From IMG/VR virus record IMGVR_UViG_3300031539_000145: 35,503 nt of DNA. One strand, 5' to 3'. The notes under the pieces are model-generated. The model saw only the letters and a program-made list of their open reading frames with translations, made no database searches and had not been told where the DNA came from. This DNA comes from a virus. Made by a program: the position numbers and the translations under genes. This document shows positions 4,772 through 35,503 of this stretch, piece after piece; the stretch's first letter is position 1, and the number at the start of each line of letters is the position of its first letter.

Positions 4772-5173
4772 CTACGGCACCGGGACATAAACCTTTGCCA
4801 GAGCACCTGTGCCTTGATATGTCACAGTAATCCTGATTTTGTCAGGCTGTGGCACAGTGGTTGTTGTTCCTGTGATTATAGCATCCCCGCTGAGCTTGGC
4901 ACCTGCCACATGGTCAATGAACAGCTCAAGGGCAACAACCTCACCCTCATTGATGTTGGGTGGGTCATTTGCAATGTCCTGAGCTGTGTCATAATTGAGC
5001 TCAAAACTGCCTGACCATCCGATGTTTGCCGGAATGAAATCTTTGACCCCTGCACTTTCATAGTCTGTGGTTTCAACCACATCCCCTTCAGTGTCAAGAG
5101 ACCAGTTGTCACACCCTGCAACCACAGTGGCTTCAGATGTGACCTGCCCGTTCTTGCCCGTCTTGTGAGCCAT
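4772..5173 (-). CDS. Major tail protein (133 aa)
   Basis: Sequence pattern NWSLDTEGDVVETTDYESAGVKDFIPANIGWSGSFELNYD is typical of TP901-1/phi13-type major tail proteins, and the position before the G/T chaperones fits. Start set to the third Met codon (GAAGGGAG + 6 nt + ATG at 5173); the track ORF starts at 5179. Confidence 0.8.
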   Translation of the reverse strand: MAHKTGKNGQVTSEATVVAGCDNWSLDTEGDVVETTDYESAGVKDFIPANIGWSGSFELNYDTAQDIANDPPNINEGEVVALELFIDHVAGAKLSGDAIITGTTTTVPQPDKIRITVTYQGTGALAKVYVPVP

Positions 5174-5193
5174 CAACATCTCCCTTCAAAAAA

Positions 5194-7218: not shown

Positions 7219-7229
7219 GCTGCTGCCCC

Positions 7230-7427
7230 CTATTTCTTGGGCTTCTTCTTGCCCTGCTTCTTGACAGGCTTCACAACCTCAACAGGCTGCTTCTCCAATT
7301 CCATGAAGGTCTTGGGGTCACACTGCAGAGCTCTGCCTGCCTTGATGAGCTTGTGAGCCTCTTCTTCAGACAGCCAATCGAATTGACCATCCCTTCTTTT
7401 GATGAGAACTTTGCCTTCTCGGGTCAA
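7230..7427 (-). CDS. Small protein with polybasic C-terminal tail (65 aa)
   Basis: GAGGGGG + 6 nt + TTG at 7427. Product: (M)TREGKVLIKRRDGQFDWLSEEEAHKLIKAG...KPVKKQGKKKPKK. The N-terminal 24 aa of the track's 89-aa ORF (7230..7499) overlap the neighbouring gene and have no RBS. Confidence 0.6.
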   Translation of the reverse strand: MTREGKVLIKRRDGQFDWLSEEEAHKLIKAGRALQCDPKTFMELEKQPVEVVKPVKKQGKKKPKK

Positions 7428-7446
7428 AGGTTCACCCCCTCTCAGG

Positions 7447-7623
7447 TTATTTCTTCTTGCCCCCGCCTTTGCCGCCCTTCTTCTTGGGTGCCTTGGCAAC
7501 CATCTTGTTGCTGTACTCCCTGAAGTCCTTTGACTTCAAAAGCTCTGCGGCTCTGCCAGAGGGCACCATGCTCACTGCCTTGGTCTTGGTATTGACTACT
7601 CTCACATGTCTCTCTCTTGACAT
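7447..7623 (-). CDS. Small protein with polybasic C-terminal tail (58 aa), absent from the ORF track
   Basis: GAGGGGAG + 6 nt + ATG at 7623. Hand translation: MSRERHVRVVNTKTKAVSMVPSGRAAELLKSKDFREYSNKMVAKAPKKKGGKGGGKKK, stop TAA at 7449..7447. It falls below the 60-aa track cut-off. Confidence 0.6.
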   Translation of the reverse strand: MSRERHVRVVNTKTKAVSMVPSGRAAELLKSKDFREYSNKMVAKAPKKKGGKGGGKKK

Positions 7624-7666
7624 CGAAAACTCCCCTCACTCATCTGCTCATCCAAAGTTTAGGTCA

Positions 7667-7695
7667 GGGGCTGCAGGATGAGCTTCTACAGCCCC
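7667..7695 (-). terminator. Stem-loop downstream of the head-module paralog genes (10-bp stem with one G.U pair, 9-nt loop)
   Basis: Plus strand: ggggctgcag-gatgagctt-ctacagcccc. It lies 44 nt after the stop at 7739. No clear U-tract, so it could be an attenuator or processing site rather than a strong terminator. Confidence 0.45.
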
Positions 7696-7738
7696 CGCCC
7701 ACTGAAGCACAAGGCATCCAGCTCAACAACTTGGGCTT

Positions 7739-8167
7739 TTACTCCCAAGTATTGTAGAGAAAGTCAGCCCCGATTTTGTTTTCAAAGGCTTGATGCGGGG
7801 CATGAAGAGCTGCTGCAATTGTAGCATTGCAGATGGTGCCAAAGCCTGAATTGTCAATGACCAGAGCAACCCATGGCTTGCCTTCCACCAAGTCTTCTGC
7901 CTTCACTTCCATTACAGCCACCTTGTCTTCATCTATGACACCGGGGGTGCCAATCTTGAGGTCTGAGGGATTCGTGCCAACAGAGTCTTCTGCAGACCTC
8001 AAGCCAATCTGCATTGAGGGTGTGCCAGCCACCACCTTCATGTCAGCAATGAAAGCAGCTCTGTCAAACTCTCTCATGTCATAATACTTTGAGGTTGCCT
8101 GAGAGTCTTCCAACACAGTTGTTGGAAGTGCAACATCAACCAGCATATTGTCAGACAACTTGTGCAC
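7739..8167 (-). CDS. Head-module paralog 1 (142 aa); possible decoration/auxiliary capsid protein
   Basis: GAAGGGAG + 6 nt + GTG. By eye it is about half identical to 8215..8649 (MHKLSDNMLV..ALPTT...DMREFD.AAF.AD ... H.AFENKIGADFL.N.WE). It lies between the MCP and the connector. Confidence 0.6.
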   Translation of the reverse strand: MHKLSDNMLVDVALPTTVLEDSQATSKYYDMREFDRAAFIADMKVVAGTPSMQIGLRSAEDSVGTNPSDLKIGTPGVIDEDKVAVMEVKAEDLVEGKPWVALVIDNSGFGTICNATIAAALHAPHQAFENKIGADFLYNTWE

Positions 8168-8214
8168 TCTTGACTCCCTTCTGAAAGCTCAACAGAGAGC
8201 TCACCCCTTGGTTT

Positions 8215-8649
8215 TTATTCCCAAGAGTTGAAAAGAAAATCAGCCCCAATCTTGTTCTCGAAAGCGTGATGGGGGCTGAACAGGGCAGCCATGACTGTTG
8301 GGTTGACCGCACCACCCACATCAGTCACTTTCAATGCAACAAAAGGCTTGCCCTCAGGCAGGTCTTCTGCTTTGGTTTCCATGACTGCCACAACATCTGC
8401 AGCCATGAGACCCACTGAGCCTGTCTTCACAACCTCAGCATTCGTGCCAATGGCATCTGAGGCAGCAAGAAGCACAATGGTCACTGTTGCATGAGCGATG
8501 TTGTCAACCAAGTCAGCAACAAAAGCTGCCTTGTCAAACTCTCTCATGTCGAAGTAGGCTGAAGTTGCTTCAGCACCACCATTGGAATCAATCAATGCTG
8601 TGGTTGGAAGAGCCAACCCCACCAGCATGTTGTCAGAAAGCTTGTGCAT
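8215..8649 (-). CDS. Head-module paralog 2 (144 aa)
   Basis: GAAGGGAG + 6 nt + ATG at 8649 (the track ORF starts at a TTG at 8670). Its N- and C-termini are collinear with paralog 1. Confidence 0.6.
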   Translation of the reverse strand: MHKLSDNMLVGLALPTTALIDSNGGAEATSAYFDMREFDKAAFVADLVDNIAHATVTIVLLAASDAIGTNAEVVKTGSVGLMAADVVAVMETKAEDLPEGKPFVALKVTDVGGAVNPTVMAALFSPHHAFENKIGADFLFNSWE

Positions 8650-8724
8650 TCTGATTCTCCCTTCAGTCAAAGTTTAATGGAAATTTCTAAACTTTTCTTC
8701 TGCTTCCCTTCTGGCTCTCAGAGC

Positions 8725-9195
8725 CTATATGGGGATGACAGGTGGTGCAGGTGTCAGGTGCAGGCTGTCAAACACTTCATTGTACACACCCATCTTGTCG
8801 AAGTGCAGATGGTCTGAGTTTGCAACCACAATGAGAGTGACAAGCTTTGAGCCAACATCAACACCTGTCTTGGTGGCTCTGCACTTGACAAGCACAAACT
8901 CACCCAAGCTGAGGTTCTCTGCCTTGATGTCGAAAGCATAGGCACCAAATCCAACAATCAGATTGGGAGTGATGCCATTGACGACAAGCAGGCTCTGCTC
9001 ATCAAGGTCACCTTCTTTTGCCTCAAGAACCTCAAGGTTCAGCTTGTCTGTTGAAGCCCAATCATGGACTATGGCAACAAACATCACCTTGTCACTCTGC
9101 CTCATGTCAACTGGCAGAGTGATTGCTTCTGGGTCAGGTTCAAGGTCAGCTGTTCTCACACAGGAAACCTTGAGGTTGTCACTGTATTTGTTCAA
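8725..9195 (-). CDS. Head-module paralog 3, divergent (156 aa)
   Basis: AGAAGGGAG + 6 nt + TTG at 9195 gives (M)NKYSDNLKVS..., which aligns with MHKLSDNMLV of paralogs 1 and 2. Shared DMR..D..F.A and KAE(D/N)L..G motifs. The track ORF (start 9252) would run through the hairpin that follows the MCP gene. Confidence 0.5.
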   Translation of the reverse strand: MNKYSDNLKVSCVRTADLEPDPEAITLPVDMRQSDKVMFVAIVHDWASTDKLNLEVLEAKEGDLDEQSLLVVNGITPNLIVGFGAYAFDIKAENLSLGEFVLVKCRATKTGVDVGSKLVTLIVVANSDHLHFDKMGVYNEVFDSLHLTPAPPVIPI

Positions 9196-9230
9196 GTCAT
9201 TCTCCCTTCTACAGAAATTGAATCTGTCAA

Positions 9231-9260
9231 GCAGCCCTGCAGCCTGAACCACAGGGCTGC
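9231..9260 (-). terminator. Stem-loop immediately after the major capsid gene (9-bp perfect stem)
   Basis: gcagccctg (9231..9239) pairs with cagggctgc (9252..9260), with a 12-nt loop. It starts 16 nt after the MCP stop. No U-tract. Confidence 0.45.
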
Positions 9261-9275
9261 ATTGTCAGTTCAACT

Positions 9276-10682
9276 CTACTGTACCGGCGCATCCAGAGTA
9301 ACAAAGGGAGAAAGCCTGAAATCAGGTGACCCGTTCTTGGGCTTGAGACTTTCTTTCCACCAGCCCTTGCCATCGTACCTGATTGTGAACCTGAAGCAGG
9401 TCTGGTTTTTGTCAAACCTGATATGAATGCTCATGTCAGTCTTGACATTCAGGCCAGCTTTTCCACCGAGCAGGTACATGCCCGGGTCAACAAGAACCAT
9501 CGAGCCCTTGTTGTCTTTTGAAGGCACCTTCTCTGTCTTGAAGGCAGGCTTGCCCATCAAGGTGTCGTAGGGTTTGCCACTGACACCATTGGCAGGCATG
9601 TATGCAGGAATGGTGCCTATCAGCATTGAGGCAACCAGAGGGAAGAGCTCATGGTTGTAAACCCAGATTGCCCTACCCATGCTGGCCGGGAAGAGAGAAG
9701 CCCACATGTTGAAGATGTCAAGTGCAACAATTCCTGCACCCTGTCTTGTGATGGTCACCAGAGCAGGTGAGTTCAGAACTCCCTGAGGTCTGGCTGCACC
9801 ATTCCCATTGAGGCAGTCATCATCGATGACAAAGGCAATGGCCTGACCGAAGAGGCTGTTCAGGATTGCCTCAACAGAAATCATTGAATCTTCCAGCAAG
9901 GTGTTGGTCACATACACCAGACCAGCAACCTCATGCAGGTTGAGCTCAACCAGACCTGTCTTGGGTTTGCTCTCTGTCTTCTGTCCACCCTCTTCAACTC
10001 TGACTATCTGCACTCCACCATAGAACTCACCCTCTGAGTGGTCAGTGTCAAAGATTGCCGGGATTTTGACAGCCCCTGTTGCCATCGGGATGAACTGCGT
10101 CTTCGGATAAAAGAAGGCAGTCTCAAGGGCTGTGGTGAGCAGGCTGGCTCTGTACTGTGCCGGGGCAAGGAAACCACCCTGAGCATCATCGCCTGCCATC
10201 ATGAGGTCACCAACATCCTTGCCCATGACCTGCCTGAGGGCTTTCTCTTTCTTCTCCACCCCGTCAAGGTACTTCACCAGAGTCTCAGACCTTCTGCCTG
10301 AGGTCTCAGCCTTGACACAGTCTCTGAGAAAGTGCCCGAAGTTCTTGAAGCCACCCTGAGGGTCTTCCCGGTCAATGACTTCAATGCGGGGCAACTTGCT
10401 CATGAGTTCTTTGTGAGCAGACAGGATTGGCTCAAGAGCAGTCTTCACTGCTGCACTGACTGACTTGGAGAGGGGGTCAATCAGCTCATCGCCTGCTTTG
10501 ACACCCTCACCTGCCGGGTCAGCATCGCCAGACCCTGCCGGGTCTTTCTTCTCTTCCACTGCCACTGCTTTGCCACCATTGATGAGCATGTTTGCCATGT
10601 TCTCATCAAGCAGCATTTCAGTGCCAGCATCCAGCTTCTGACCGTAAACATCAGCAGCTTTCAATAGTCTCACTTTCTTCAC
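9276..10682 (-). CDS. Major capsid protein, HK97 fold, with an N-terminal delta-like extension of about 130 aa (468 aa)
   Basis: DAQGGFLAPAQYRASLL...FIPMATGAVKIPA...LVELNLHEVAGLVYVTNTLLEDS...FGQAIAFVIDDDCLNGNG is the canonical HK97-family MCP pattern. Start set to the GTG at 10682 (GAAGGGAG + 6 nt). Confidence 0.9.
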   Translation of the reverse strand: MKKVRLLKAADVYGQKLDAGTEMLLDENMANMLINGGKAVAVEEKKDPAGSGDADPAGEGVKAGDELIDPLSKSVSAAVKTALEPILSAHKELMSKLPRIEVIDREDPQGGFKNFGHFLRDCVKAETSGRRSETLVKYLDGVEKKEKALRQVMGKDVGDLMMAGDDAQGGFLAPAQYRASLLTTALETAFFYPKTQFIPMATGAVKIPAIFDTDHSEGEFYGGVQIVRVEEGGQKTESKPKTGLVELNLHEVAGLVYVTNTLLEDSMISVEAILNSLFGQAIAFVIDDDCLNGNGAARPQGVLNSPALVTITRQGAGIVALDIFNMWASLFPASMGRAIWVYNHELFPLVASMLIGTIPAYMPANGVSGKPYDTLMGKPAFKTEKVPSKDNKGSMVLVDPGMYLLGGKAGLNVKTDMSIHIRFDKNQTCFRFTIRYDGKGWWKESLKPKNGSPDFRLSPFVTLDAPVQ

Positions 10683-16257: not shown

Positions 16258-16390
16258 GCTTTCACACCCCTGTAAGATTTTCCACTGCTTGCCTGAGTGT
16301 TGTAACTCCTTCTCCGTGTGGAATATACAAGGGGGAGAGGGGCTGTCAAGGGCTTTTTTCTGCCAGAAGTTCTGAGAGCCTCTGCTTTTG

Positions 16391-16478
16391 GGTTTGGAGA
16401 GAGGTCAGAAAGAGGGCAGGGTGGTTCTCTTCTGCTCTCTTCTCATCTCCTCTCTTCTCTTCTTGTCTCATCTCATCT
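16391..16478. repeat. Purine block (16391..16424) abutting a 54-nt polypyrimidine CT tract (16425..16478, only 5 purines)
   Basis: ggtttggagagaggtcagaaagagggcagggtgg | ttctcttctgctctcttctcatctcctctcttctcttcttgtctcatctcatct, with internal CTCTTCT and TCTCATC micro-repeats. Confidence 0.8.
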
Positions 16479-16540
16479 AAGGGCACAGGTGCAATGAAAT
16501 GACCTGATTGCCATAAGTGCTTGAAAGCTCATAGGATGCG

Positions 16541-16600
16541 AAACTGCAGGAAACTCAGAATAACCCAGAGAAACCTGAGAGAACCCCTTTTTAACTGGTT
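16541..16600. repeat. Six consecutive helically phased (~10 bp) AAC-containing decamers; predicted intrinsic bend or protein-binding array
   Basis: aAACtgcagg / aAACtcagaa / tAACccagag / aAACctgaga / gAACcccttt / ttAACtggtt, read directly from 16541..16600. Confidence 0.7.
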
Positions 16601-16778
16601 GGCCTTGTTCACCGGGTTTTGCTGTCCTGCCCCAATCCCGGCTGTCAGACCATTTTACCGACATCAGCAAAAAGGCACTCAGTTGATTGTGCAAAAAAAA
16701 CTTTGCTTTTCTTCAAAATAGTTCTGGCTTTCTGCCCTGTAGATGGTACTCTTTGGTGGCTGAGACAGAGGATGAGCA

Positions 16779-24705: not shown

Positions 24706-24721
24706 AAAGAGAGGTTTGATT

Positions 24722-25954
24722 GTGGCAAAGATAATTGCTCTCAGAGCAAGGAACGTGAAGAGGCTCTCTGCTGTGGAAATCATCCCCCCGGCTGATGAGT
24801 CTGTTGTTGTTATTGGGGGTGAGAATGCACAGGGCAAGACCTCTGTGCTTGACTCAATCATGTATGCCTTGGCAGGTGGCAAGAGCATCCCCGATGACGT
24901 GGTCAAGCATGGAGAGAAAAAGGCAACCATTGAAATTGACCTTGGTGAATTCAAAATCACCCGGGTCTTGGGCAAAGGTGCAAGGCTTGAAGTCAAAGCT
25001 GCAGATGGTGAGAAAGTCAACTCACCGCAGCAGGTACTTGACAAGCTTGCCGGGAAGCTCACCTTTGACCCTCTCCACTTCCAGAGGCTGAGTGAGACCA
25101 CCCCCGGGAGAAGAGAGCAGGCTCTCATCCTGAGAGAGCTGGTGGGGCTTGACTTCAGTGGGTATGACAAGAAGAGGCAGATTCTCTTTGACCAGAGAAC
25201 TGAAGTCAACAGAGACCTGAAGAGAGCTCAGGGTACTCTTGAGACAATGGCCTTCTTCCCTCAGGCACCCAAAGAAGCCATCAGGGTCACCGATGTTGCT
25301 GCAGAGCTGCAGAAGGCTGCACAGCACAATGCAGAGGCTCTGAAGCTGAGCAGAGGTCTGGGCAATCTTGAAACCACCATTGAAACCATCAAGAAGAACA
25401 TCGAGCAGCAGCAGTCTGAGCTTGAGAGAGTCATTGCAGAGAAGATGAAGTTGCAGGCTCAAGCCAGAAGCTTCAAGCAGATTGACACAGAGGCTCTCAA
25501 CAAGAAGCTTGAAGAGGCTCAAGAAATCAATGAGCATGTGGCAAAGAACAAGCAGAGAAATGAGCTCAACAAGCTGTCTTCTGAGCTTGAGAAGAAGTCA
25601 GAGCTGCTCACAGAAACCATTGAAGAACTCGATGGTGAGAAAGAGAAGAAGTTGGCTGAGGCTGACATGCCTGTTGAGGGGCTGACTTTTTCTGAAGAAG
25701 GGGTCTTGTTCAATGGGGTGCCGTTCCACAACTGCAGCTCAGCAGAGCAGCTCAAGCTCTCATGTGCAATGAGCATCAAGATGAATCCTGAGCTCAAGGT
25801 CATGCTCATCAGGGATGGCTCTCTGCTTGATGACAACAGCCTTGCAACTCTCAGGGAAATGGCAGGCAAGTCAGACCATCAAGTTTGGCTTGAGAGAGTG
25901 GGCAAGGGTGAAGAGTGCACAGTCATAATTGAAGATGGTTCTGTTGTTCAGTGA
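24722..25954 (+). CDS. SMC/Rad50/SbcC-like AAA ATPase with a central coiled coil (410 aa)
   Basis: Walker A: GGENAQGKTS. About 200 aa of coiled coil. C-terminal Walker B/D-loop: KVMLIRDGSLLDD. Start set to the GTG at 24722 (GAGG + 7 nt). Confidence 0.75.
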   Translation: MAKIIALRARNVKRLSAVEIIPPADESVVVIGGENAQGKTSVLDSIMYALAGGKSIPDDVVKHGEKKATIEIDLGEFKITRVLGKGARLEVKAADGEKVNSPQQVLDKLAGKLTFDPLHFQRLSETTPGRREQALILRELVGLDFSGYDKKRQILFDQRTEVNRDLKRAQGTLETMAFFPQAPKEAIRVTDVAAELQKAAQHNAEALKLSRGLGNLETTIETIKKNIEQQQSELERVIAEKMKLQAQARSFKQIDTEALNKKLEEAQEINEHVAKNKQRNELNKLSSELEKKSELLTETIEELDGEKEKKLAEADMPVEGLTFSEEGVLFNGVPFHNCSSAEQLKLSCAMSIKMNPELKVMLIRDGSLLDDNSLATLREMAGKSDHQVWLERVGKGEECTVIIEDGSVVQ

Positions 25955-25982
25955 GCTGGTGCAGCTCAGAAGGGAGAAGTTT

Positions 25983-26309
25983 ATGAAGAAGTTAGGTGGT
26001 CAGAAAGAGCTCATACCCGAGAATATTCCCGAGCTCAAAGACAAGGATACTGCACAGAAGCTTGAGCAAATATGGAAGCTCAGGGATGGTGCCAAGGTGC
26101 ACGACAAGCTTCAGGCAGAAGCCAAAGAAGTCATCCAAGGTTGGGTGCTTGGGCTTCCAAAGAAAGACCAGAGCATCGGCCAGTGCAAGTGTGGTGATTT
26201 CATTCTGTCCTTCAAGGTTGAGATGCAGGAAGAGAAACCTGTGTCATACAAAACCAAGAAGGGCAAAAAAGTCAGGGTGAAGTTTGCCCCTGAAAATGAA
26301 GAAGAGTGA
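25983..26309 (+). CDS. Hypothetical protein (108 aa)
   Basis: GAAGGGAG + 6 nt + ATG at 25983 (the track ORF starts at 25929). Confidence 0.55.
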   Translation: MKKLGGQKELIPENIPELKDKDTAQKLEQIWKLRDGAKVHDKLQAEAKEVIQGWVLGLPKKDQSIGQCKCGDFILSFKVEMQEEKPVSYKTKKGKKVRVKFAPENEEE

Positions 26310-26322
26310 GAGGGGGCTGCCC

Positions 26323-26943
26323 TTGTATATTCCATTGGAGTTGAGCCTTGAGCTCACAGCTTTTGAAGCACCAAATCCCCGAGAGCTCAAGCACATCTTC
26401 ACTCTCTTTGTGCCGGGAAGACCAAGACCCAAGCAGAGGCTCAGGCATATCATTGCAGGGCTGTGGTCAAAGTATAAGCCCCATGCAATGCTGCACCAGC
26501 TCAAGGGGTTTCTTGCTGGTCTGCAGTTCTGTTTTGCCACACCTGAGCTGCCTGCTGATGAGCTCAAAGAAAGAGTGAGAGAGAATCTGTCATGCCTGAT
26601 GGCAATTGACAATCTGCCTGAGGGCAGGCCAAAGGTCATCGGGTTCACACCACCAGACACTGCAGACTTTGAGAACAAGGTGGCTCTGGCTGCTCAGCAG
26701 CTATACAAAGAGGCACCCTGCATCAAGAGGGCTGCTGTGTTCTTCAAGTTCATCTACTCAATGAGAAATTGGGCAGACCTTGACAACCTTGAGAAGTCTA
26801 TTCTCGATGGTTTGGTGAAGGGCAGAGTTCTCAGTGATGACAGGATTGTTGAAGTGCATCTCAGCTTCAGGGAATATGCAAAGGGCACAAGACTTGAGGG
26901 GTCTCTGGTCAAGGTGTATGAGGTCAGAGACCCCCAACAATAG
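26323..26943 (+). CDS. rusA: RusA-family Holliday junction resolvase with an internal insertion of about 70 aa (206 aa)
   Basis: N-terminal FVPGRPRPKQRLR and C-terminal NWADLDNLEKSILDGLVKGRVLSDDRIV are RusA signatures. GAGAGGGGG + 6 nt + TTG at 26323, with an alternative ATG at 26296. Confidence 0.75.
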   Translation: MYIPLELSLELTAFEAPNPRELKHIFTLFVPGRPRPKQRLRHIIAGLWSKYKPHAMLHQLKGFLAGLQFCFATPELPADELKERVRENLSCLMAIDNLPEGRPKVIGFTPPDTADFENKVALAAQQLYKEAPCIKRAAVFFKFIYSMRNWADLDNLEKSILDGLVKGRVLSDDRIVEVHLSFREYAKGTRLEGSLVKVYEVRDPQQ

Positions 26944-26955
26944 AAAGAGGACAGC

Positions 26956-27747
26956 ATGGCAAGACCAAGAAGCATCAAGCCAGAAGAGCTGAACATGCTG
27001 ACCTTGTTCAAGGTAATTATTGTCAAGTGGAAAGAGCACAATCCTGACATTACAAAAATGAAGGGAAGAGTGGAGTTCTTGAAACTCAAGGCCGCAAGAA
27101 CAACAGACACCATCGATGATGAGAAGTTTGATGTGCAGGGTCTCTTCTTTGCCATGTTGAGACATTCAGCAGGTGGCAGAAGCCCGGGTGAAATTGTTGC
27201 CGGGAGTGGTGAGCACCTGACACTGAAGCAGCTTGCAAGATACCTGAGAAAGACAGTTGAAGAGCTGCTTCCACCTTTGCAGCAACTGATGAGAACTGAC
27301 AGGGTCAAAGTTGTTGTGAAATCTTCAGAGGGCTCACAGGATGAAGAACCCGAAGAAGAACCCGAAGAAGACCAAAGCCGGACATCCGAGAAGGTCAATT
27401 TGTACAGAGCCTGCCGGGTCTTCTTTCTTGCATGGGAAGAATTGCACTTCAAAAGCTACAACAGAAAGTATGACAAGAGCCAGTGGGATGAGAAGAACCT
27501 GCAGCAGACATTGACGCCAGACAAGCTGACAAGGTTCATTGCCTATGCTTTCCACTTCCACCAGCAGGATGGCAAGGTTGGCATCCCCACGCTTGAAGAG
27601 AGAAGTGCCAGCAAATTGAAGACACCATCACTTGACAATTTCTTGAAGAGGGTTGCAGACTACAGCTCAACATTGAGGGGTGAAGAGTGGGAAAGAAGCC
27701 AAAACTGGTCAACAGAGTTCCTGAAGAAACACCAAAGCCCGAAGTGA
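26956..27747 (+). CDS. Hypothetical protein with an HTH-like segment and an acidic linker (263 aa)
   Basis: LTLKQLARYLRKTVEEL looks like a helix-turn-helix. EEPEEEPEED forms an acidic stretch. The function (replication organiser or regulator) is only a guess. Confidence 0.35.
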   Translation: MARPRSIKPEELNMLTLFKVIIVKWKEHNPDITKMKGRVEFLKLKAARTTDTIDDEKFDVQGLFFAMLRHSAGGRSPGEIVAGSGEHLTLKQLARYLRKTVEELLPPLQQLMRTDRVKVVVKSSEGSQDEEPEEEPEEDQSRTSEKVNLYRACRVFFLAWEELHFKSYNRKYDKSQWDEKNLQQTLTPDKLTRFIAYAFHFHQQDGKVGIPTLEERSASKLKTPSLDNFLKRVADYSSTLRGEEWERSQNWSTEFLKKHQSPK

Positions 27748-28190
27748 AAAAACCTTCAGATTTGGTCATGAAGGTTCTCAGGTTTCTTTGCATCACAGAA
27801 CTCATTGGGAAATGGGAAGTGCTCAAAGACCTCAATGTGACTTGGGATGAAGCCAAGTTTAAGGTTGAGCAGTCAATGAGACCAAGCAAAGTTGAGTTTT
27901 ACTTTGTGGGCACCAATGGCAAGCTTGGCAACCCCGTCAATGCCAGAGACATGCTCATGATGTATGAGGCAAAGAAACCTGCTGAATTTATCAAACTTGC
28001 TGAAGAGCTGCTCAACAAAGAGAAACACATGATTGAATCTGTTGAATACAAAAAGGGTGACTATGACAGGGTGTGCAGAGTGAGAGCTGCTCTTGGTGCC
28101 CCCGAGAAGAAATATCTTGACACAAAGATGACTCCCACAGAGCAGGCTGTCTTCTTGAGAAAGCATGAGCTGTGGAATAACCCGAGTTGA
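27687..28190 (+). CDS. Hypothetical protein (167 aa)
   Basis: GAGGGG + 6 nt + GTG at 27687. It overlaps the previous gene by 61 nt. Confidence 0.5.
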   Translation: MGKKPKLVNRVPEETPKPEVKKPSDLVMKVLRFLCITELIGKWEVLKDLNVTWDEAKFKVEQSMRPSKVEFYFVGTNGKLGNPVNARDMLMMYEAKKPAEFIKLAEELLNKEKHMIESVEYKKGDYDRVCRVRAALGAPEKKYLDTKMTPTEQAVFLRKHELWNNPS

Positions 28191-28204
28191 GAAGGGAGAA
28201 GTGA

Positions 28205-28666
28205 ATGAATTTGTATGCCAAGGGCACCACAGTGAGTGTGGGCAAGACTCAGGCAGACATCAGAAAGCTTGTTGAAAAATACAGGGGGCAATGGGTTGGC
28301 GTTGTGACTGACCATGAGCAGGTCAGACCAATCGATGCCCTTGCCTTCAGACTTGCAGGCTTACCCATCAGATTCAATGTGCTGCATCCAAGACCCAATG
28401 ACCCTGAGGTTAAGGGGTACAATCTTGAGAAGGCCATTGAAGCTGAATATAAAAGAAGATGGCGGGAAGTCTGGCTGATTGTGAAGAGCAGGCTGATTGA
28501 AGCGGTGCAACTCAAGCGGGATGTGAAAGAGGTTTTCATGCCCCAACTTGTCACAAAGACAGGCCAGACTCTCTGGGAAATGTCTCAGAAGAACATGAGC
28601 TCTCTTGTGGATGGCAGCATTTCCCTTGGTGCTATGCTGCAACTGCCAGAGGGGGGGTTGAGTTGA
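28205..28666 (+). CDS. Hypothetical protein (153 aa)
   Basis: GAAGGGAG + 6 nt + ATG. Confidence 0.6.
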   Translation: MNLYAKGTTVSVGKTQADIRKLVEKYRGQWVGVVTDHEQVRPIDALAFRLAGLPIRFNVLHPRPNDPEVKGYNLEKAIEAEYKRRWREVWLIVKSRLIEAVQLKRDVKEVFMPQLVTKTGQTLWEMSQKNMSSLVDGSISLGAMLQLPEGGLS

Positions 28667-28935
28667 CAGTCTATGTTGACAGAACAATGAAGCATCCTTC
28701 AGGTGAGTGGTGCCACCTGTTCACCGATGGGTACTTGACCGAGCTCTTTGATTTGGCTCTCAGCATCGGTCTCAAAATCCCTTGGTTTCAGTATGAGATG
28801 AAGTGCACACTTCCACACTTTGACTTGAGACCATCAATGAGAGCCAGAGCAATTGCAGCCGGGGCTGTGGAAGTGGAGAGAGAGAAGGTTGTTGAAGTTG
28901 TCAACCTGTGGAGAGAGAGAAGGGGGTTGCTGTGA
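28663..28935 (+). CDS. DUF4031-family protein (90 aa)
   Basis: MTVYVD...WCHLFTD...ELFDLALSIGLKIPWFQ...LPHFDLRPSMRARAIAAGAVEV matches the DUF4031 pattern. TTGA overlap with the upstream stop. Confidence 0.7.
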   Translation: MTVYVDRTMKHPSGEWCHLFTDGYLTELFDLALSIGLKIPWFQYEMKCTLPHFDLRPSMRARAIAAGAVEVEREKVVEVVNLWRERRGLL

Positions 28936-29825
28936 ACCTGAGAGAACTTGTGTCAGATGTCAGAGTCAACCGGGGTCTCTGGTGGCAAAGAGCATGGTCA
29001 CTTGTTGCAGGCTGCACCCCGGTCTCTGAAGCTTGCCAGAACTGTTGGGCTGCAACAATGGCTCACAGGCAGGGCATGAGGCAGGGCTTGTCTGATGCTC
29101 AATGGGAATTGTGGGGGGGCTTGACAACAGAGCAGGGCAGTTGGAATGGCTCAACCAGACTACTGCAAAAGAATCTCACTCTACCTTTGGATGTCAAGAA
29201 GCCAACTCTCTTCAGCATCTGGAATGACCTCTTTCATCCCAATGTGCCTTGGGAGTTCATCAACAAGGCATGGGGCACAATGCTTGTCATGCAAAGGCAT
29301 TTCTTCTTGGTCTTGACCAAGAGACCCGAGAGGCTTCTTGACTTTCTCAAGAACCACCGAGAGCCCTACAATGCAGAGTTCCCAAGGGGTGTGCCTTATG
29401 CCAACATCGGAATTGGCACCACCATTGAGCTGCCCAAGTACGAGCACAGGCTTGACACCCTGCTTCAGATACCTGCAGCTCTGCACTTTGTCAGTCTTGA
29501 GCCTCTACTTGGTGAAGTCAAGTTGGGATTGGCAAAACCTTGTGACCGCAACTGCAATGAGTATGACCATGCTGAATGCCCCGGCACTGCTGGTCTATGT
29601 GTCATGCAGAGAAAACTGGATTGGGTCTTGCTTGGTTGCGAGTCAGGCAGTCACAGAAGAGACACAAAGTTTGAAGATGCCCAAAAGATTCTCAATGAGT
29701 GCCGGGATGCTGGTGTGCCTGCTTTCTTGAAACAGATTGATTTCTCAGGTGCCAAGATTGTTCATGCACCAACAACTCTCACCGGGCAAGTTCTTCAGTT
29801 CCCAGAAGTGGAGTGGAAACCATGA
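28932..29825 (+). CDS. Phage Gp37/Gp68 (DUF5131) family protein (297 aa)
   Basis: AWSLVAGCTPVSEACQNCWAATMAHR ... FSIWNDLFHP ... FFLVLTKRPERL ... FVSLEPLLG ... LDWVLLGCESG ... AFLKQI are family hallmarks. GTGA overlap, with GAAGGGGG 5 nt upstream. Confidence 0.75.
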   Translation: MNLRELVSDVRVNRGLWWQRAWSLVAGCTPVSEACQNCWAATMAHRQGMRQGLSDAQWELWGGLTTEQGSWNGSTRLLQKNLTLPLDVKKPTLFSIWNDLFHPNVPWEFINKAWGTMLVMQRHFFLVLTKRPERLLDFLKNHREPYNAEFPRGVPYANIGIGTTIELPKYEHRLDTLLQIPAALHFVSLEPLLGEVKLGLAKPCDRNCNEYDHAECPGTAGLCVMQRKLDWVLLGCESGSHRRDTKFEDAQKILNECRDAGVPAFLKQIDFSGAKIVHAPTTLTGQVLQFPEVEWKP

Positions 29826-30172
29826 AAATAATCAGCTTTGCTTGGACAACAGAAGCCCTGCTGCAAGGCAAGAAGACCCAGACAAGAAGGTTCTGGAAAG
29901 ATAGTTATGCCAAGCAGTTCAAGAAGGGTGAGATGGTTCAAGCCTATGACAAGAACCCCCGGGCAGGTGGCAAGATTGTTGCTTTCATCAGACTGACCAA
30001 AGACCCATACCAACAGCATCTCAGTGACATGACTGTTGAGAATTTTGAGGCTGAAGGTGGCACAATGTACTGGTCATGTCTGTTTGATTTCCAGTTTGCA
30101 ATGAAGCAGCAAAAGAAGGGCTTGAAGCCTTGGGTACTTGAGTTTGAACTGCTGAGGGTGGTGAACCAATGA
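29822..30172 (+). CDS. ASCH (PUA-like) domain protein (116 aa)
   Basis: MKIISFAWTTEALLQGKKTQTRRFW is the typical ASCH N-terminus. ATGA overlaps at both ends. Confidence 0.65.
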   Translation: MKIISFAWTTEALLQGKKTQTRRFWKDSYAKQFKKGEMVQAYDKNPRAGGKIVAFIRLTKDPYQQHLSDMTVENFEAEGGTMYWSCLFDFQFAMKQQKKGLKPWVLEFELLRVVNQ

Positions 30173-30834
30173 CAGAGAAGAAAAAGTGGTTTCAAGAGTT
30201 CTTGGTCAAGCCCTACTACTATGCAAGAGATGACGGGGTTGTGCTCTGTGGTCATGCCCGGTCTGCAATGGCTGACTTCCCAGATGAATCTGTGAGCCTC
30301 ATCTTCACTGACCCTGACTACAGCAAGGGCTCAAACCTTGGGTATTGGACACTTGCCCAGAAGAGCCCGAGAATACTCATCCCGGGTGGAGTGCTCATCA
30401 CTGAAGTGCCTCACAGGTACATGACAGGCATCATGATGATATTCCAGCTTGATGGTGCAGCTCAGGGTTTGCTGTGGAGATGGCTCTATGCTTTCCTGTA
30501 CCTCAAGGGGGCACAGAGAAGGCTCAGGATGGGCATCAGAGTCATCATCAAGCCTATGCTCTGTTATGTGAAGGGCAAGTGGAAGAACAGGGGCTTTGTC
30601 ATGGATGGCTTTCCTGTTGAGCCACAGCCCAAGGTGAAGCACAAGTGGCAGAAGAACCTTGATGGTTATAAGTATTTCATCGAGAGACACACTTCCCCGG
30701 GTGACATTGTTCTTGACCCCTTTGCCGGGTCAGGCACCACAGCCTTTGCCTGCAGAGAGCTTGGCAGAAGGTTTGTGCTCATTGACTGTTATCACAAAGT
30801 CTGTGCTGACATTGCAAAAGAACTGAAATCATGA
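30169..30834 (+). CDS. DNA methyltransferase, beta-class (motif IV before motif I), N6-adenine or N4-cytosine (221 aa)
   Basis: Motif IV is LIFTDPDYSKG, a DPDY variant of (D/S)PPY. Motif I is IVLDPFAGSGTTAFAC. Confidence 0.75.
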   Translation: MTEKKKWFQEFLVKPYYYARDDGVVLCGHARSAMADFPDESVSLIFTDPDYSKGSNLGYWTLAQKSPRILIPGGVLITEVPHRYMTGIMMIFQLDGAAQGLLWRWLYAFLYLKGAQRRLRMGIRVIIKPMLCYVKGKWKNRGFVMDGFPVEPQPKVKHKWQKNLDGYKYFIERHTSPGDIVLDPFAGSGTTAFACRELGRRFVLIDCYHKVCADIAKELKS

Positions 30835-31211
30835 AAATCCAGAAAGACCCTAAGCTCTGGGAACCCCCTGAAAATGGGTACAGGATTGAGACAGGAGATG
30901 AAACTTGGGATGTCATGACAATGATTGATGTCAACCAGAACATGAGTGCCCTTTGTCTTGAGGAAAAAGAAGCCATCGCCTATGACAATAATACAGATGA
31001 AGTGGTCTCAAGACTGCATTTTGAAAATGAGAAGTTGAAGTGGAAAATTTACAGACAAATTCCAACAATGGCCGATGTCATGAGACACTTTGATGATGCA
31101 AAGAAAGCACTTCATGGATTAGAGAAGGCTGCAAGAACATCCAAGAGAGCCCGGGCTGAACTCAACAAAGCCTACAAGAAGCTTGATGATTTAGAAGGGA
31201 GAATAACGTGA
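30831..31211 (+). CDS. Hypothetical protein (126 aa)
   Basis: ATGA overlap with the MTase stop. Its last codons contain the RBS of the next gene. Confidence 0.6.
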   Translation: MKIQKDPKLWEPPENGYRIETGDETWDVMTMIDVNQNMSALCLEEKEAIAYDNNTDEVVSRLHFENEKLKWKIYRQIPTMADVMRHFDDAKKALHGLEKAARTSKRARAELNKAYKKLDDLEGRIT

Positions 31212-31465
31212 AGAAGCTCTTGGTATTTCATAGACAGGGCTGACCAAGGTGCACTGAGGCTCTCGGGAAAGCTGAAGAGCTTGCCGGAAAGCATGGGTTC
31301 AAGTTTGAGCTCTATGACCTTGACACCATTGATGGTCTGGCTGAGTATGCCTTCAATGTCTCGGGTCAACTGAGAACGCCTGTCTTTGTTGTGGTCAAAG
31401 AAAAGACCAAGGTTGCAACCGATGTCTTTGGGCAAGCTGAGCTTGCAGTGAGGGATAAAAGATGA
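31208..31465 (+). CDS. Thioredoxin-fold (glutaredoxin/NrdH-like) protein with an in-frame TGA (31241..31243) at the first redox position; candidate selenoprotein U-P-R-C (85 codons)
   Basis: AGAAGGGAG + 6 nt + GTG at 31208 (GTGA overlap upstream). Hand translation: (M)KKLLVFHRQG-TGA-PRCTEALGKAEELAGKHGFKFELYDLDTIDGLAEYAFNVSGQLRTPVFVVVKEKTKVATDVFGQAELAVRDKR. The stop at 31463..31465 overlaps the next ATG. It is absent from the ORF track because of the internal TGA. Confidence 0.6.
31266..31285 (+). promoter_or_regulatory. Candidate SECIS-like hairpin downstream of the in-frame UGA
   Basis: GGAAAGCU-GAAG-AGCUUGCC: an 8-bp stem with one A.G mismatch and a G-first tetraloop. The apical loop begins 30 nt after the UGA. 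Confidence 0.3.
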
Positions 31466-31836
31466 AGAGAGTTTTTATCTGTTCAGCATTCAGAGCTGAA
31501 GACCATGACCAAGAAGAAGTGCACAAGTGGTATGCAAGAGAGCTTTGCAGGTATGCCATTGATGAGGGCTATGCCCCCTTTGCACCGCATCTGTTCTTCA
31601 CTCAATTTCTGAGTGACCTCAGTGAAGTTGAAAGAAGCCAAGGCATCAGGGCAGGTCTCATGTTCATGCAGACTTGTCAAGAGCTCTGGTTTGGTGTGAA
31701 GCATGGTCTCTCAGAAGGCATGAAGTTTGAAATTGAACATGCTGCCAAGTCAGTTGGCATCCCCATCTTCATTGTTGTCAAAAATCCTGATGGCACTTTC
31801 ACCAGAGGGCAGACAGAAAAACTGCCCCAAGTATAA
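31462..31836 (+). CDS. DUF4406 / nucleoside 2-deoxyribosyltransferase-like protein (124 aa)
   Basis: MKRVFICSAFRAED...ARELCRYAIDEGYAPFAPHLFF...WFG...SEGMKFEIEHA fits the DUF4406/DUF1937 Rossmann-like pattern. Confidence 0.55.
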   Translation: MKRVFICSAFRAEDHDQEEVHKWYARELCRYAIDEGYAPFAPHLFFTQFLSDLSEVERSQGIRAGLMFMQTCQELWFGVKHGLSEGMKFEIEHAAKSVGIPIFIVVKNPDGTFTRGQTEKLPQV

Positions 31837-34607: not shown

Positions 34608-35503
34608 TCAAACTGGTGGCTCAGGCACTATCATCAATCTTGGTTTCCATTCAGTGCACAGCAGTCTGTTGACAAGAGTGTCTTGAGCATGTGCAAACTC
34701 TCTGACAATATATTCAAAGATTATCAGACAGCCCCTGCCTGCAGCCAGTAAAGCACTGTATGGCACAATGGGCGCATCAGCATATCTCACAACCTGCTCT
34801 GTGCTGCCTGCAGGCACAGGGATTGTGAAGCTTCCAAGTGCCATCCCTGCTGTGCTCAAGTTGCCATTGGCATTGATGACTTTATAGGAATAAGGGAAAT
34901 AAGCATTGAGGGGTGACCCTGTTGGGTTGCTTGCAGAATATTTTATTCTGAAGCCCATGCCTTGACCTTCAACAATATCATGCAGCTCAGCATGTCCTGA
35001 GTATCCTGCAGGCTTGCCACCATTGACGAACTCATGACCAAGAATTGAAGTGCTTGGAATTCTCAGCACAGGTGGAAACCTGTAACTTGAAGTGTTCAGA
35101 GGTTCATAACATTCCCAATCAAAGACACTGTATTCAATTCCGGGGTGTGGCTCCTGAGGTCTCCATTCAACTGTTTCTCTGTCAAGTCTGGTGTCAAAGT
35201 TGGCAAGTCTTTCATCGCCAACCATTTCACCTACAATATGCAGACCTGTTGCCAAAGCTCCTGCAGGGGTGTCTGTGAAATAGATTCGGCCATCTTTGGC
35301 AACTGACCTGTGAACATGACAGTCATCTCTCAGATTCACCAAGCTGAAACCATCACCATCCTTGGTGACAATTGATACGTCATCATCTGTGAGCTGAACC
35401 AAGGTGCCCCACTGAGCAACTCTTCTCTTTGGTGGTGCAGGCTGCCAAACTCCATTGATTTCTTCAAAGTCTGAGCCCTTGCCAGCATCAGTGACCCAAC
35501 CAC
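34608..35503 (-). CDS. 3' part of the junction-spanning tail-tip/baseplate gene (continues from 509..1 across the genome junction)
   Basis: The frame of track ORF 34608..35402 stays open upstream to the window end (…GWVTDAGKGSDFEEINGVWQPAPPKRRVAQWGT-LVQLTDDD…). The track's TTG 'start' at 35402 is internal. Confidence 0.8.
   Translation of the reverse strand, partial: GWVTDAGKGSDFEEINGVWQPAPPKRRVAQWGTLVQLTDDDVSIVTKDGDGFSLVNLRDDCHVHRSVAKDGRIYFTDTPAGALATGLHIVGEMVGDERLANFDTRLDRETVEWRPQEPHPGIEYSVFDWECYEPLNTSSYRFPPVLRIPSTSILGHEFVNGGKPAGYSGHAELHDIVEGQGMGFRIKYSASNPTGSPLNAYFPYSYKVINANGNLSTAGMALGSFTIPVPAGSTEQVVRYADAPIVPYSALLAAGRGCLIIFEYIVREFAHAQDTLVNRLLCTEWKPRLMIVPEPPV
35377..35503. repeat. Terminal direct repeat, copy 2 (identical to 1..127)
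   Basis: Same comparison as copy 1. Confidence 0.95.

Follow-up and report, generated by a model that had tools for sequence, protein, structure and literature searches.

The question raised by this locus is whether a reading frame broken by a single TGA codon can be an intact phage gene in which the TGA is translated as selenocysteine (Sec, U). The frame occupies positions 31208-31465 on the plus strand of the viral DNA IMGVR_UViG_3300031539_000145, a stretch of 35,503 nucleotides referred to below as the window, and the original prediction described it as a candidate phage-encoded selenoprotein of the UxxC type. The follow-up analysis supports this proposal through the conservation of the TGA, the presence of cysteine in the same column of homologues, the occurrence of model-compliant hairpins downstream, and the ordinary use of TGA as a stop elsewhere in the genome. 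With a probability of roughly 0.8 the gene would encode a UxxC selenoprotein whose Sec is inserted by the host SelB/tRNA-Sec machinery.

The interrupted reading frame

The elements of the gene are the following.

31193..31201, plus strand: Shine-Dalgarno-like sequence AGAAGGGAG, read directly, with the 6-nt spacer AATAAC before the GTG at 31208-31210
31208..31465, plus strand: read-through coding sequence of the candidate thioredoxin-fold (glutaredoxin-like) selenoprotein, 85 codons and a stop
31241..31243, plus strand: in-frame TGA, codon 12, the proposed Sec codon and first residue of the U-P-R-C motif (31241-31252)
31316..31345, plus strand: family signature D-L-D-T-I-D-G-L-A-E at the start of helix 2, from alignments
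31379..31381, plus strand: conserved Pro, codon 58, directly before beta-3, at the cis-Pro position of the thioredoxin fold

The start region and the overlaps on both sides of the gene were found as originally predicted: the GTG start shares bases with the TGA stop of the upstream open reading frame (ORF) at 31209-31211 (GTGA), and the stop of the candidate gene (TGA, 31463-31465) overlaps the ATG of the next gene at 31462 (ATGA). The translation reads VKKLLVFHRQG-TGA-PRCTEALGK...YDLDTIDGLAE...RTPVFVVV..., where the TGA in the context VFHRQG-TGA-PRC is the sole internal stop and falls, as had been claimed, at the place of the N-terminal redox cysteine. The further claim that no in-frame start codon follows the TGA requires a minor correction, since GTG is found at codons 62 and 81, and only there. 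Both lie far too late for a restart downstream of the TGA to give a folded domain, and a restart was therefore rejected as the explanation of the frame.

The interval 31208-31465 is left uncalled in every public assembly of this phage, and the program-made list of ORFs is also empty here on the plus strand. On the opposite strand an ORF of 87 amino acids (window 31172-31435, minus strand) covers the gene; most likely it is an artefact of the scarcity of TAA and TAG, as long shadow ORFs occur throughout the window.

Conservation of the TGA codon

The sequence of 31208-31465 is 100% identical in three independent assemblies (SRR8554504, ERZ27256828, and ERZ27256810), all of which have TGA and not TGC or TGT, and an assembly error is thereby refuted. 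Beyond these copies the TGA is found at the same codon in four diverged syntenic orthologues. The syntenic anchor is the gene that follows the redoxin gene immediately on its 3' side in each of the five TGA-carrying phages:

31462..31836, plus strand: downstream gene for a DUF7768 protein (Pfam PF24963, E = 5.8e-29)

The orthologues have the following active-site contexts.

L062: YFFKQG-TGA-GSC, DUF7768 gene directly downstream
L064: AFYRQG-TGA-PKC, DUF7768 gene directly downstream
L151: AFHRQG-TGA-PAC, DUF7768 gene directly downstream
L157: IFHKLG-TGA-PDC, DUF7768 gene directly downstream

Start codons and Shine-Dalgarno sequences are kept among the orthologues; for example, the gene of L157 begins with GAAGGGAG, 6 nt, and TTG, in the same arrangement as in the window. 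Coding is conserved on both sides of the TGA, so that the possibility of a consistently truncated gene, which the original prediction had left to be checked, does not apply. For L062 and L064, the proteins encoded around the gene share 35-58% identity with those of the window phage. Among the five TGA genes and a form with cysteine (Cys) at the same position, pairwise amino-acid identity is 33-52% and the proportion of synonymous differences (pS) is 0.53-1.0, i.e. near or at saturation, with nonsynonymous divergence lower than synonymous (dN < dS). At synonymous divergence near saturation, five lineages would not all have kept a neutral TGA and, behind it, an open frame of 73 codons. The comparisons show the gene to be real, neither an assembly error nor a pseudogene.

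The redoxin gene was not found in the relatives L152, L155, L156, L161, and L163, all of which have the DUF7768 gene, and thus it is accessory and not a part of the core genome. In one of them, the 37.7-kb related phage L152, other small genes stand in the place of the redoxin and the region is a variable accessory cassette; at 7807-9385 this phage encodes a C5 DNA methylase together with an MT-A70 methylase, in the position taken by an N6/N4 methylase in the window (29813-30834).

Homologues and fold of the predicted protein

An exhaustive HMMER search was performed with the 73 residues after the TGA only, the 11 codons before it being left out of the query. It retrieved P0002, a protein of 83 amino acids (MELHYFFRQGCPGCENKAARAERIASVHGLEFKGYDLDTVDGLAEAAF...) encoded at locus L001, which is 45% identical to the window protein and is its closest Cys-type homologue. 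The N-terminus of P0002, YFFRQG-C-PGC, was absent from the query and nevertheless aligns residue-for-residue with LVFHRQG-TGA-PRC of the window, with the first cysteine of the CxxC motif in the TGA column. The homologue check proposed with the original prediction is answered in the same sense by a wider set, as cysteine occupies this column in P0002, in the IMG/VR locus L164, and in more than 100 cellular CxxC proteins. The residues D, L, D, T, D, G, A, and E of the signature are invariant in two family alignments (A2 and A4), in which Pro58 is also invariant; C12, C15, and P58 are invariant together.

The AlphaFold (AF2) model of P0002 (predicted local distance difference test, pLDDT, 80.5; predicted template modelling score, pTM, 0.71) has the layout beta-alpha-beta-alpha-beta-beta-alpha with CPGC at the N-terminus of helix 1 and with beta-3 (residues 59-64) starting directly after P58. 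In Foldseek this model matched thioredoxins with probability 1.0 and template modelling (TM) scores of 0.6-0.7. Read from the model of its Cys homologue, the product of the window gene is predicted to have the thioredoxin fold, which bears out the glutaredoxin/NrdH/thioredoxin-like assignment made at first.

With cysteine substituted at codon 12 the window protein gave weak, below-threshold matches to Pfam Glrx-like and Glutaredoxin and to several redoxins of the PDB, thioredoxin included, which agree with this fold. The Pfam scores were 22.3 bits for Glrx-like PF05768 (gathering cut-off 26) and 20.3 bits for Glutaredoxin PF00462 (cut-off 22.9). On the NCBIfam model NF041212 of Uxx-star glutaredoxin-like (seleno)proteins the score was 17.9 bits (cut-off 66). 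The window protein had no match to TIGR00411 (MJ0307 thioredoxin), on which a cellular relative reached 39.2 against a cut-off of 92.75, and the curated cut-off of TIGR02194 (NrdH) was not reached. As it stays below threshold in every named family tested, the protein is assigned no further than to the thioredoxin-fold, glutaredoxin-like proteins; it showed no glutathione-binding motifs.

Relatives in protein databases are almost absent. No match or related locus was obtained by a word-indexed search of proteins with the read-through sequence, by blastn of the surrounding 4 kb against the phages of GenBank, by searches for related loci in IMG/VR with either the protein alone or an alignment of two sequences, or by the DLDTxDGLAE DNA pattern in IMG/VR. 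The Sec-specific gapped pattern (CAGGGNTGA..TGY..DGLAE) gave in IMG/VR and GTDB genomes only chance matches in the wrong frame and with no homology. A DNA pattern for DLDT[IVM]DGLAE matched at least 119 metagenome stretches, and nearly all of those listed encode CxxC proteins of about 85 amino acids.

The metagenome loci L002-L120 include a large, highly conserved family of CPKC redoxins of about 85-89 amino acids from wetland, lake, and sediment metagenomes, with the pattern M.[LS]IKIF.KAKCPKCP...YDLDTIDGLAEASFY.ILSTPS and with some members on contigs exceeding 100 kb. On the MJ0307-thioredoxin model the family stays below the cut-off; it has the DLDTxDGLAE signature in common with the phage protein. 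On phage-like contigs Cys-type relatives are those of L001 and L164. The latter (5001-5177 of IMGVR_UViG_3300011118_000022, an unrelated 31-kb viral contig) is a CRAC member of the DLDTIDG family, and its presence there indicates that the small redoxin is a recurrent phage accessory gene beyond the Sec-carrying lineage.

Hairpins downstream of the TGA

In the bacterial model of the selenocysteine insertion sequence (SECIS) the apical loop has 3-9 nt and the upper stem 4-16 bp, G stands within the first two loop positions, the loop lies 16-37 nt from the UGA, and the minimum free energy (MFE) is -7.5 kcal/mol or lower (PMC13188914). Two candidates are present in the window, the second being the hairpin of the original prediction, which is real and has its G-first loop at a spacing allowed by the model.

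31257..31282, plus strand: SECIS candidate A, 10-bp stem with a bulged A, loop GAAAG (31267-31271), 23 nt after the UGA
31269..31282, plus strand: SECIS candidate B, AAGCU-GAAG-AGCUU, loop GAAG (31274-31277), 30 nt after the UGA

As an isolated hairpin candidate A has -10.9 kcal/mol, and its 3' arm GAAGAGC is common to the perfect 10-bp hairpin of L062; candidate B, with an imperfect lower stem added, spans 31253-31298 and in this longer form is the best hit of the window. The best compliant hairpin of each TGA gene was as follows.

Window: MFE -17.2 kcal/mol, loop GAAG, spacing 30 nt
L062: MFE -18.7 kcal/mol, loop GGC, spacing 26 nt
L151: MFE -11.7 kcal/mol, loop GGUC, spacing 21 nt
L157: MFE -11.9 kcal/mol, loop GGUC, spacing 21 nt
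L064: MFE -8.9 kcal/mol, loop AGAAAA, spacing 29 nt

A compliant hairpin thus follows the TGA in all five genes, compared with 13.75% of 400 random TGA sites of the window, where 5% reach -11.7 kcal/mol and 0.5% reach -17.2 kcal/mol. When synonymous codons were substituted according to the codon usage of the phage, a hairpin at least equal to the observed one appeared in none of 150 recodings of the window gene and in 0.7% (L062), 8% (L151), 10.7% (L157), and 20% (L064) of those of the orthologues. Taken together, the hairpin structure exceeds what the protein sequence dictates. In addition, L151, L157, and L064 share one register, with pairs from 19-34 to 24-29 (the U of UGA being position 1) and tetraloops GGUC, GGUC, and GGGC, respectively, at nt 25-28. 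The pair 20/33 covaries in this register (G.U, A-U, U-A), and across six aligned sequences 75% of it is paired, against at most 50% in slid controls.

Several points weigh against the Sec interpretation. The expectation that a stable hairpin is conserved downstream holds in part: a model-compliant one follows the UGA in each gene, but there are two registers, the window and L062 being in the other one, and no single structure is conserved in all five. The window itself has two competing candidates (31257-31282 and 31269-31282), and the z-scores of folds in 60-nt windows are unremarkable, from -0.6 to -1.35. The scan was the author's own implementation of the published criteria and not bSECISearch, and a search of Rfam had no match in the neighbourhood of the gene at E <= 10 and none window-wide at gathering thresholds. 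Moreover, the strongest hairpin of the set at the SECIS position belongs to the Cys form: at 838-854 of L001 the structure CCGCUC-GGGCG-GAGCGG has z = -5.1 (60-nt window) and differs from that of L062 by three double compensatory changes. Part of the structure may therefore reflect a role other than Sec insertion, or it may be a fossil SECIS retained after a switch from Sec to Cys. No tRNA genes were found in the window.

Alternative explanations

The alternative that survives best is that the UGA is read through but not as Sec, either as Cys by a tRNA-Sec-like tRNA-Cys that uses SelB, a route put forward for certain deltaproteobacteria, or as Trp by a near-cognate tRNA in the course of leaky termination. 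UGA followed by C is a weak termination context, and C stands directly after the UGA in four of the five genes; insertion of Sec and of Cys are moreover indistinguishable from sequence alone. A deltaproteobacterial 8/4 tRNA-Cys mimicking tRNA-Sec has been described (PMC5389517). If Cys were the product, however, TGC or TGT would be simpler, and five lineages kept TGA while their synonymous sites became saturated; with Trp as the catalytic residue the redox chemistry would be lost, and a TGA/Cys pair at the nucleophilic position of CxxC is the recognised signature of Sec. Read-through of this kind is accordingly considered quite improbable.

Highly improbable is also an archaeal host, e.g. an Asgard archaeon or a methanogen, with an archaeal-type SECIS located elsewhere and with the in-frame hairpins being incidental. 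Asgardarchaeota, Thermoplasmatota, and Thermoproteota abound in the source sediments, and the hairpin register is not uniform among the five genes, both of which would suit such a host. On the other hand, a hairpin of the bacterial model stands at bacterial spacing in all five genes, with a GGUC loop in two; the stop of the gene overlaps the next start, leaving no 3' untranslated region; and the detectable relatives of the phage all infect bacteria, and the phage itself encodes RusA. Both this explanation and read-through without Sec are less economical than a SelB-decoded selenoprotein.

A dead gene or a true stop would mean a decaying pseudogene, or a leader peptide of 11 codons, with the remaining 73 codons not translated as one protein together with it. 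Such a view is favoured by the gene callers, which leave the interval uncalled, and by the rarity of TAA and TAG, which makes long frames interrupted by TGA only a common occurrence. It is opposed by the fact that five near-saturated lineages keep the start, the Shine-Dalgarno sequence, the TGA, the open frame, the active-site xxC, DLDTxDGxAE, the cis-Pro, and the downstream coupling. In the window no in-frame start is available between the TGA and codon 62, and in the model of the Cys homologue the residues before and after the TGA column jointly build one thioredoxin fold. The comparative data disfavour this explanation so strongly that it is effectively excluded. Finally, a sequencing or assembly error would need one base change only (TGC to TGA), but this and a genome-wide reassignment of TGA have a negligible chance in view of the three identical assemblies, the TGA in four orthologues, and the termination of about half of the genes, homology-supported ones included, at TGA.

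Proposed decoding and function

For a SelB-decoded selenoprotein the following course of events is proposed. During infection the gene would be translated as the next-to-last cistron of a plus-strand operon, coupled to both of its neighbours, and a hairpin 20-30 nt past the UGA of codon 12, inside the frame, would serve as a bacterial-type SECIS. This element would recruit the host SelB-GTP-Sec-tRNA(Sec) complex, with the result that Sec is inserted at codon 12 in place of termination. The product would be a thioredoxin-fold thiol-disulfide oxidoreductase of about 85 residues with an N-terminal active-site Sec (U-P-R-C), which may form a selenenylsulfide with Cys15 and cycle between the selenolate/thiol and selenenylsulfide states, reducing a phage or host substrate. 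We infer that the inserted residue is Sec and no other, that decoding depends on SelB in a bacterial Sec-competent host, and that the product has a redox role.

Relation to known selenoproteins and redoxins

Decoding by a SECIS inside the ORF is textbook knowledge, and UxxC proteins of the Grx, Trx, and Grx-like types are an established class of bacterial and metagenomic selenoproteins (the "Grx-like" families of Zhang and Gladyshev). The phage candidate resembles them in its small size and thioredoxin fold, in the proposed Sec at the nucleophilic, N-terminal residue of CxxC, in the existence of Cys homologues, and in a candidate SECIS in the ORF just 3' of the UGA; it differs in being carried by a tailed phage and not by a cell, and in its own DLDTxDGLAE signature.

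A point of comparison for the hairpins is the SECIS of Escherichia coli fdhF, the loop of which is itself GGUC. The phage hairpins likewise lie within about 40 nt 3' of the UGA, and those of L151 and L157 have a stem of 6-7 bp and a GGUC tetraloop with GU at nt 26-27. In contrast to fdhF, the loop of L151 and L157 is one codon further from the UGA, a bulged U like U17 is not evident, and the loops of the window itself are GAAAG or GAAG and not GGUC. In the fdhF element SelB contacts G23 and U24 of the apical loop (PMC8659212).

Among viruses, the glutathione peroxidases (GPx) of poxviruses are the only two viral selenoproteins in a review of recoding, and the SECIS of fowlpox virus lies in the coding region (PMC8310308). 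Those of molluscum contagiosum virus and fowlpox virus are comparable to the present case as viral selenoprotein genes relying on the Sec machinery of the host; however, they belong to eukaryotic viruses with a eukaryotic SECIS/SBP2 system and the GPx fold, while here a prokaryotic virus, a bacterial-type SECIS, and a thioredoxin fold would be combined. With phage thioredoxins, glutaredoxins, and NrdH (e.g. T4 NrdC) and with the small thioredoxins of the MJ0307 family (TIGR00411), which the abundant cellular relatives match weakly, the protein shares the small CxxC redoxin type and the position of a phage accessory gene. It differs from phage thioredoxins and NrdH by the candidate Sec in place of Cys, and neither a ribonucleotide reductase nor another obvious client enzyme was seen in homology scans of the window's proteins.

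In the literature, phages are unmentioned in the 2026 review of the prokaryotic selenoproteome, in the BSepDB paper, and in the Global Ocean Sampling (GOS) selenoproteome paper, and a marine trace-element survey had no or very few viral sequences in selenoprotein families. No earlier report of a bacteriophage selenoprotein was found in the open-access literature, although one may exist elsewhere; this search is in line with the original remark that tailed phages have no established selenoprotein. Carriage by tailed phages thus appears to be undescribed, whereas the protein type and the decoding mechanism are already known. It is somewhat more probable than an even chance that this is the first bacteriophage selenoprotein family, consisting of UxxC thioredoxin-fold genes with an in-ORF SECIS in tailed phages of about 35 kb from anoxic marine, cold-seep, and saline sediments and depending on SelA, SelB, and tRNA-Sec of the host.

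If this is true, the gene marks its host as Sec-decoding and is systematically missed by gene callers. Insertion of Sec would also place prokaryotic viruses beside poxviruses as carriers of selenoprotein genes, and would make the phage dependent on a specialised, non-universal translation pathway of the host. Host range (with Sec decoding as a requirement), adaptation of the SECIS to the SelB of the host, and the benefit of a selenium-based redoxin to a phage in sulfidic, anoxic sediment would then become testable. As the gene is uncalled in all public assemblies and has few database relatives, viral selenoproteins are probably under-counted by standard annotation.

Host and habitat

In tblastn comparisons with isolated phages the portal and capsid proteins had only distant relatives, 22-37% identical, in phages that infect a variety of bacteria. 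Portal homologues closer than these come exclusively from metagenomes, and the sole NCBI record is a bulk metagenome assembly. The loci L151, L152, L155, L001, L156, and L159 come from sediment 20-265 cm deep, reduced and sulfidic, at the Site-F cold seep of the South China Sea; the abundant bacterial phyla of that dataset include Desulfobacterota and Chloroflexota, and Asgard and other archaea occur beside them (PMC9357000). Such a habitat fits a Sec-using anaerobic host and is no proof of it.

Genome context and use of TGA

On the evidence of PHROGs and Pfam matches the window represents a tailed phage. Its minus strand encodes a large terminase, a portal-MuF fusion, a prohead protease, an HK97-type major capsid protein, a head-tail adaptor, and a tail fibre, and its plus strand a PD-(D/E)XK nuclease, an AAA_23 ATPase, RusA, DUF5131, an N6/N4 methyltransferase, and DUF7768. 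The gene directly before the candidate is the following.

30831..31211, plus strand: upstream gene for a protein of 126 amino acids, function unassigned, translationally coupled to the selenoprotein candidate

The initial view that TGA is otherwise a stop in this genome was borne out. TGA closes 28 of the 54 ORFs of a greedy ORF model, among them homology-supported genes (adaptor, tail fibre, AAA_23, DUF5131, and methyltransferase), and the standard code leaves the large structural genes uninterrupted; a genome-wide reassignment (codes 4/25, recoded phage) is thereby excluded. A scan of the uncalled gaps for a second TGA-interrupted gene met long pseudo-frames everywhere, resulting from the scarcity of TAA and TAG.

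The exact DUF7768 protein is present on 12 public contigs, 11 of which are in the 20-50 kb class, and those examined have about 35.4-35.6 kb. In L064 (2762-5173) the homologue of the window gene 34608-35402 adjoins the homologue of 520-1650, which joins the ends of the window. Together with the length of the assemblies this indicates that the window is probably a complete, circularly permuted genome.

In the plus-strand chain of 24716-31465, 11 of 12 consecutive genes end in TGA (one in TAG) and most stops overlap the next start (ATGA/GTGA), forming a long translational coupling, while the head genes of the minus strand end mostly in TAA or TAG. At 48.7% GC the observed/expected ratios of dinucleotides in the window are 0.20 for CpG, 0.26 for TpA, and 1.5 for CA/TG, and this bias makes TAA and TAG trinucleotides about 10-fold rarer than TGA on both strands. 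The bias is milder in the related phages L062, L064, and L152-L154 (CpG 0.48-0.63, TpA 0.34-0.49) and is not seen in cellular contigs with the Cys-type redoxin; a host signature, avoidance of restriction, and base modification are possible causes.

The largest stretches without a called ORF are 7219-7738 and 16258-16778. The second, lying between the structural block on the minus strand and the replication block on the plus strand, which are divergent, is probably a regulatory region, and the first may hold a small lysine-rich gene on the minus strand.

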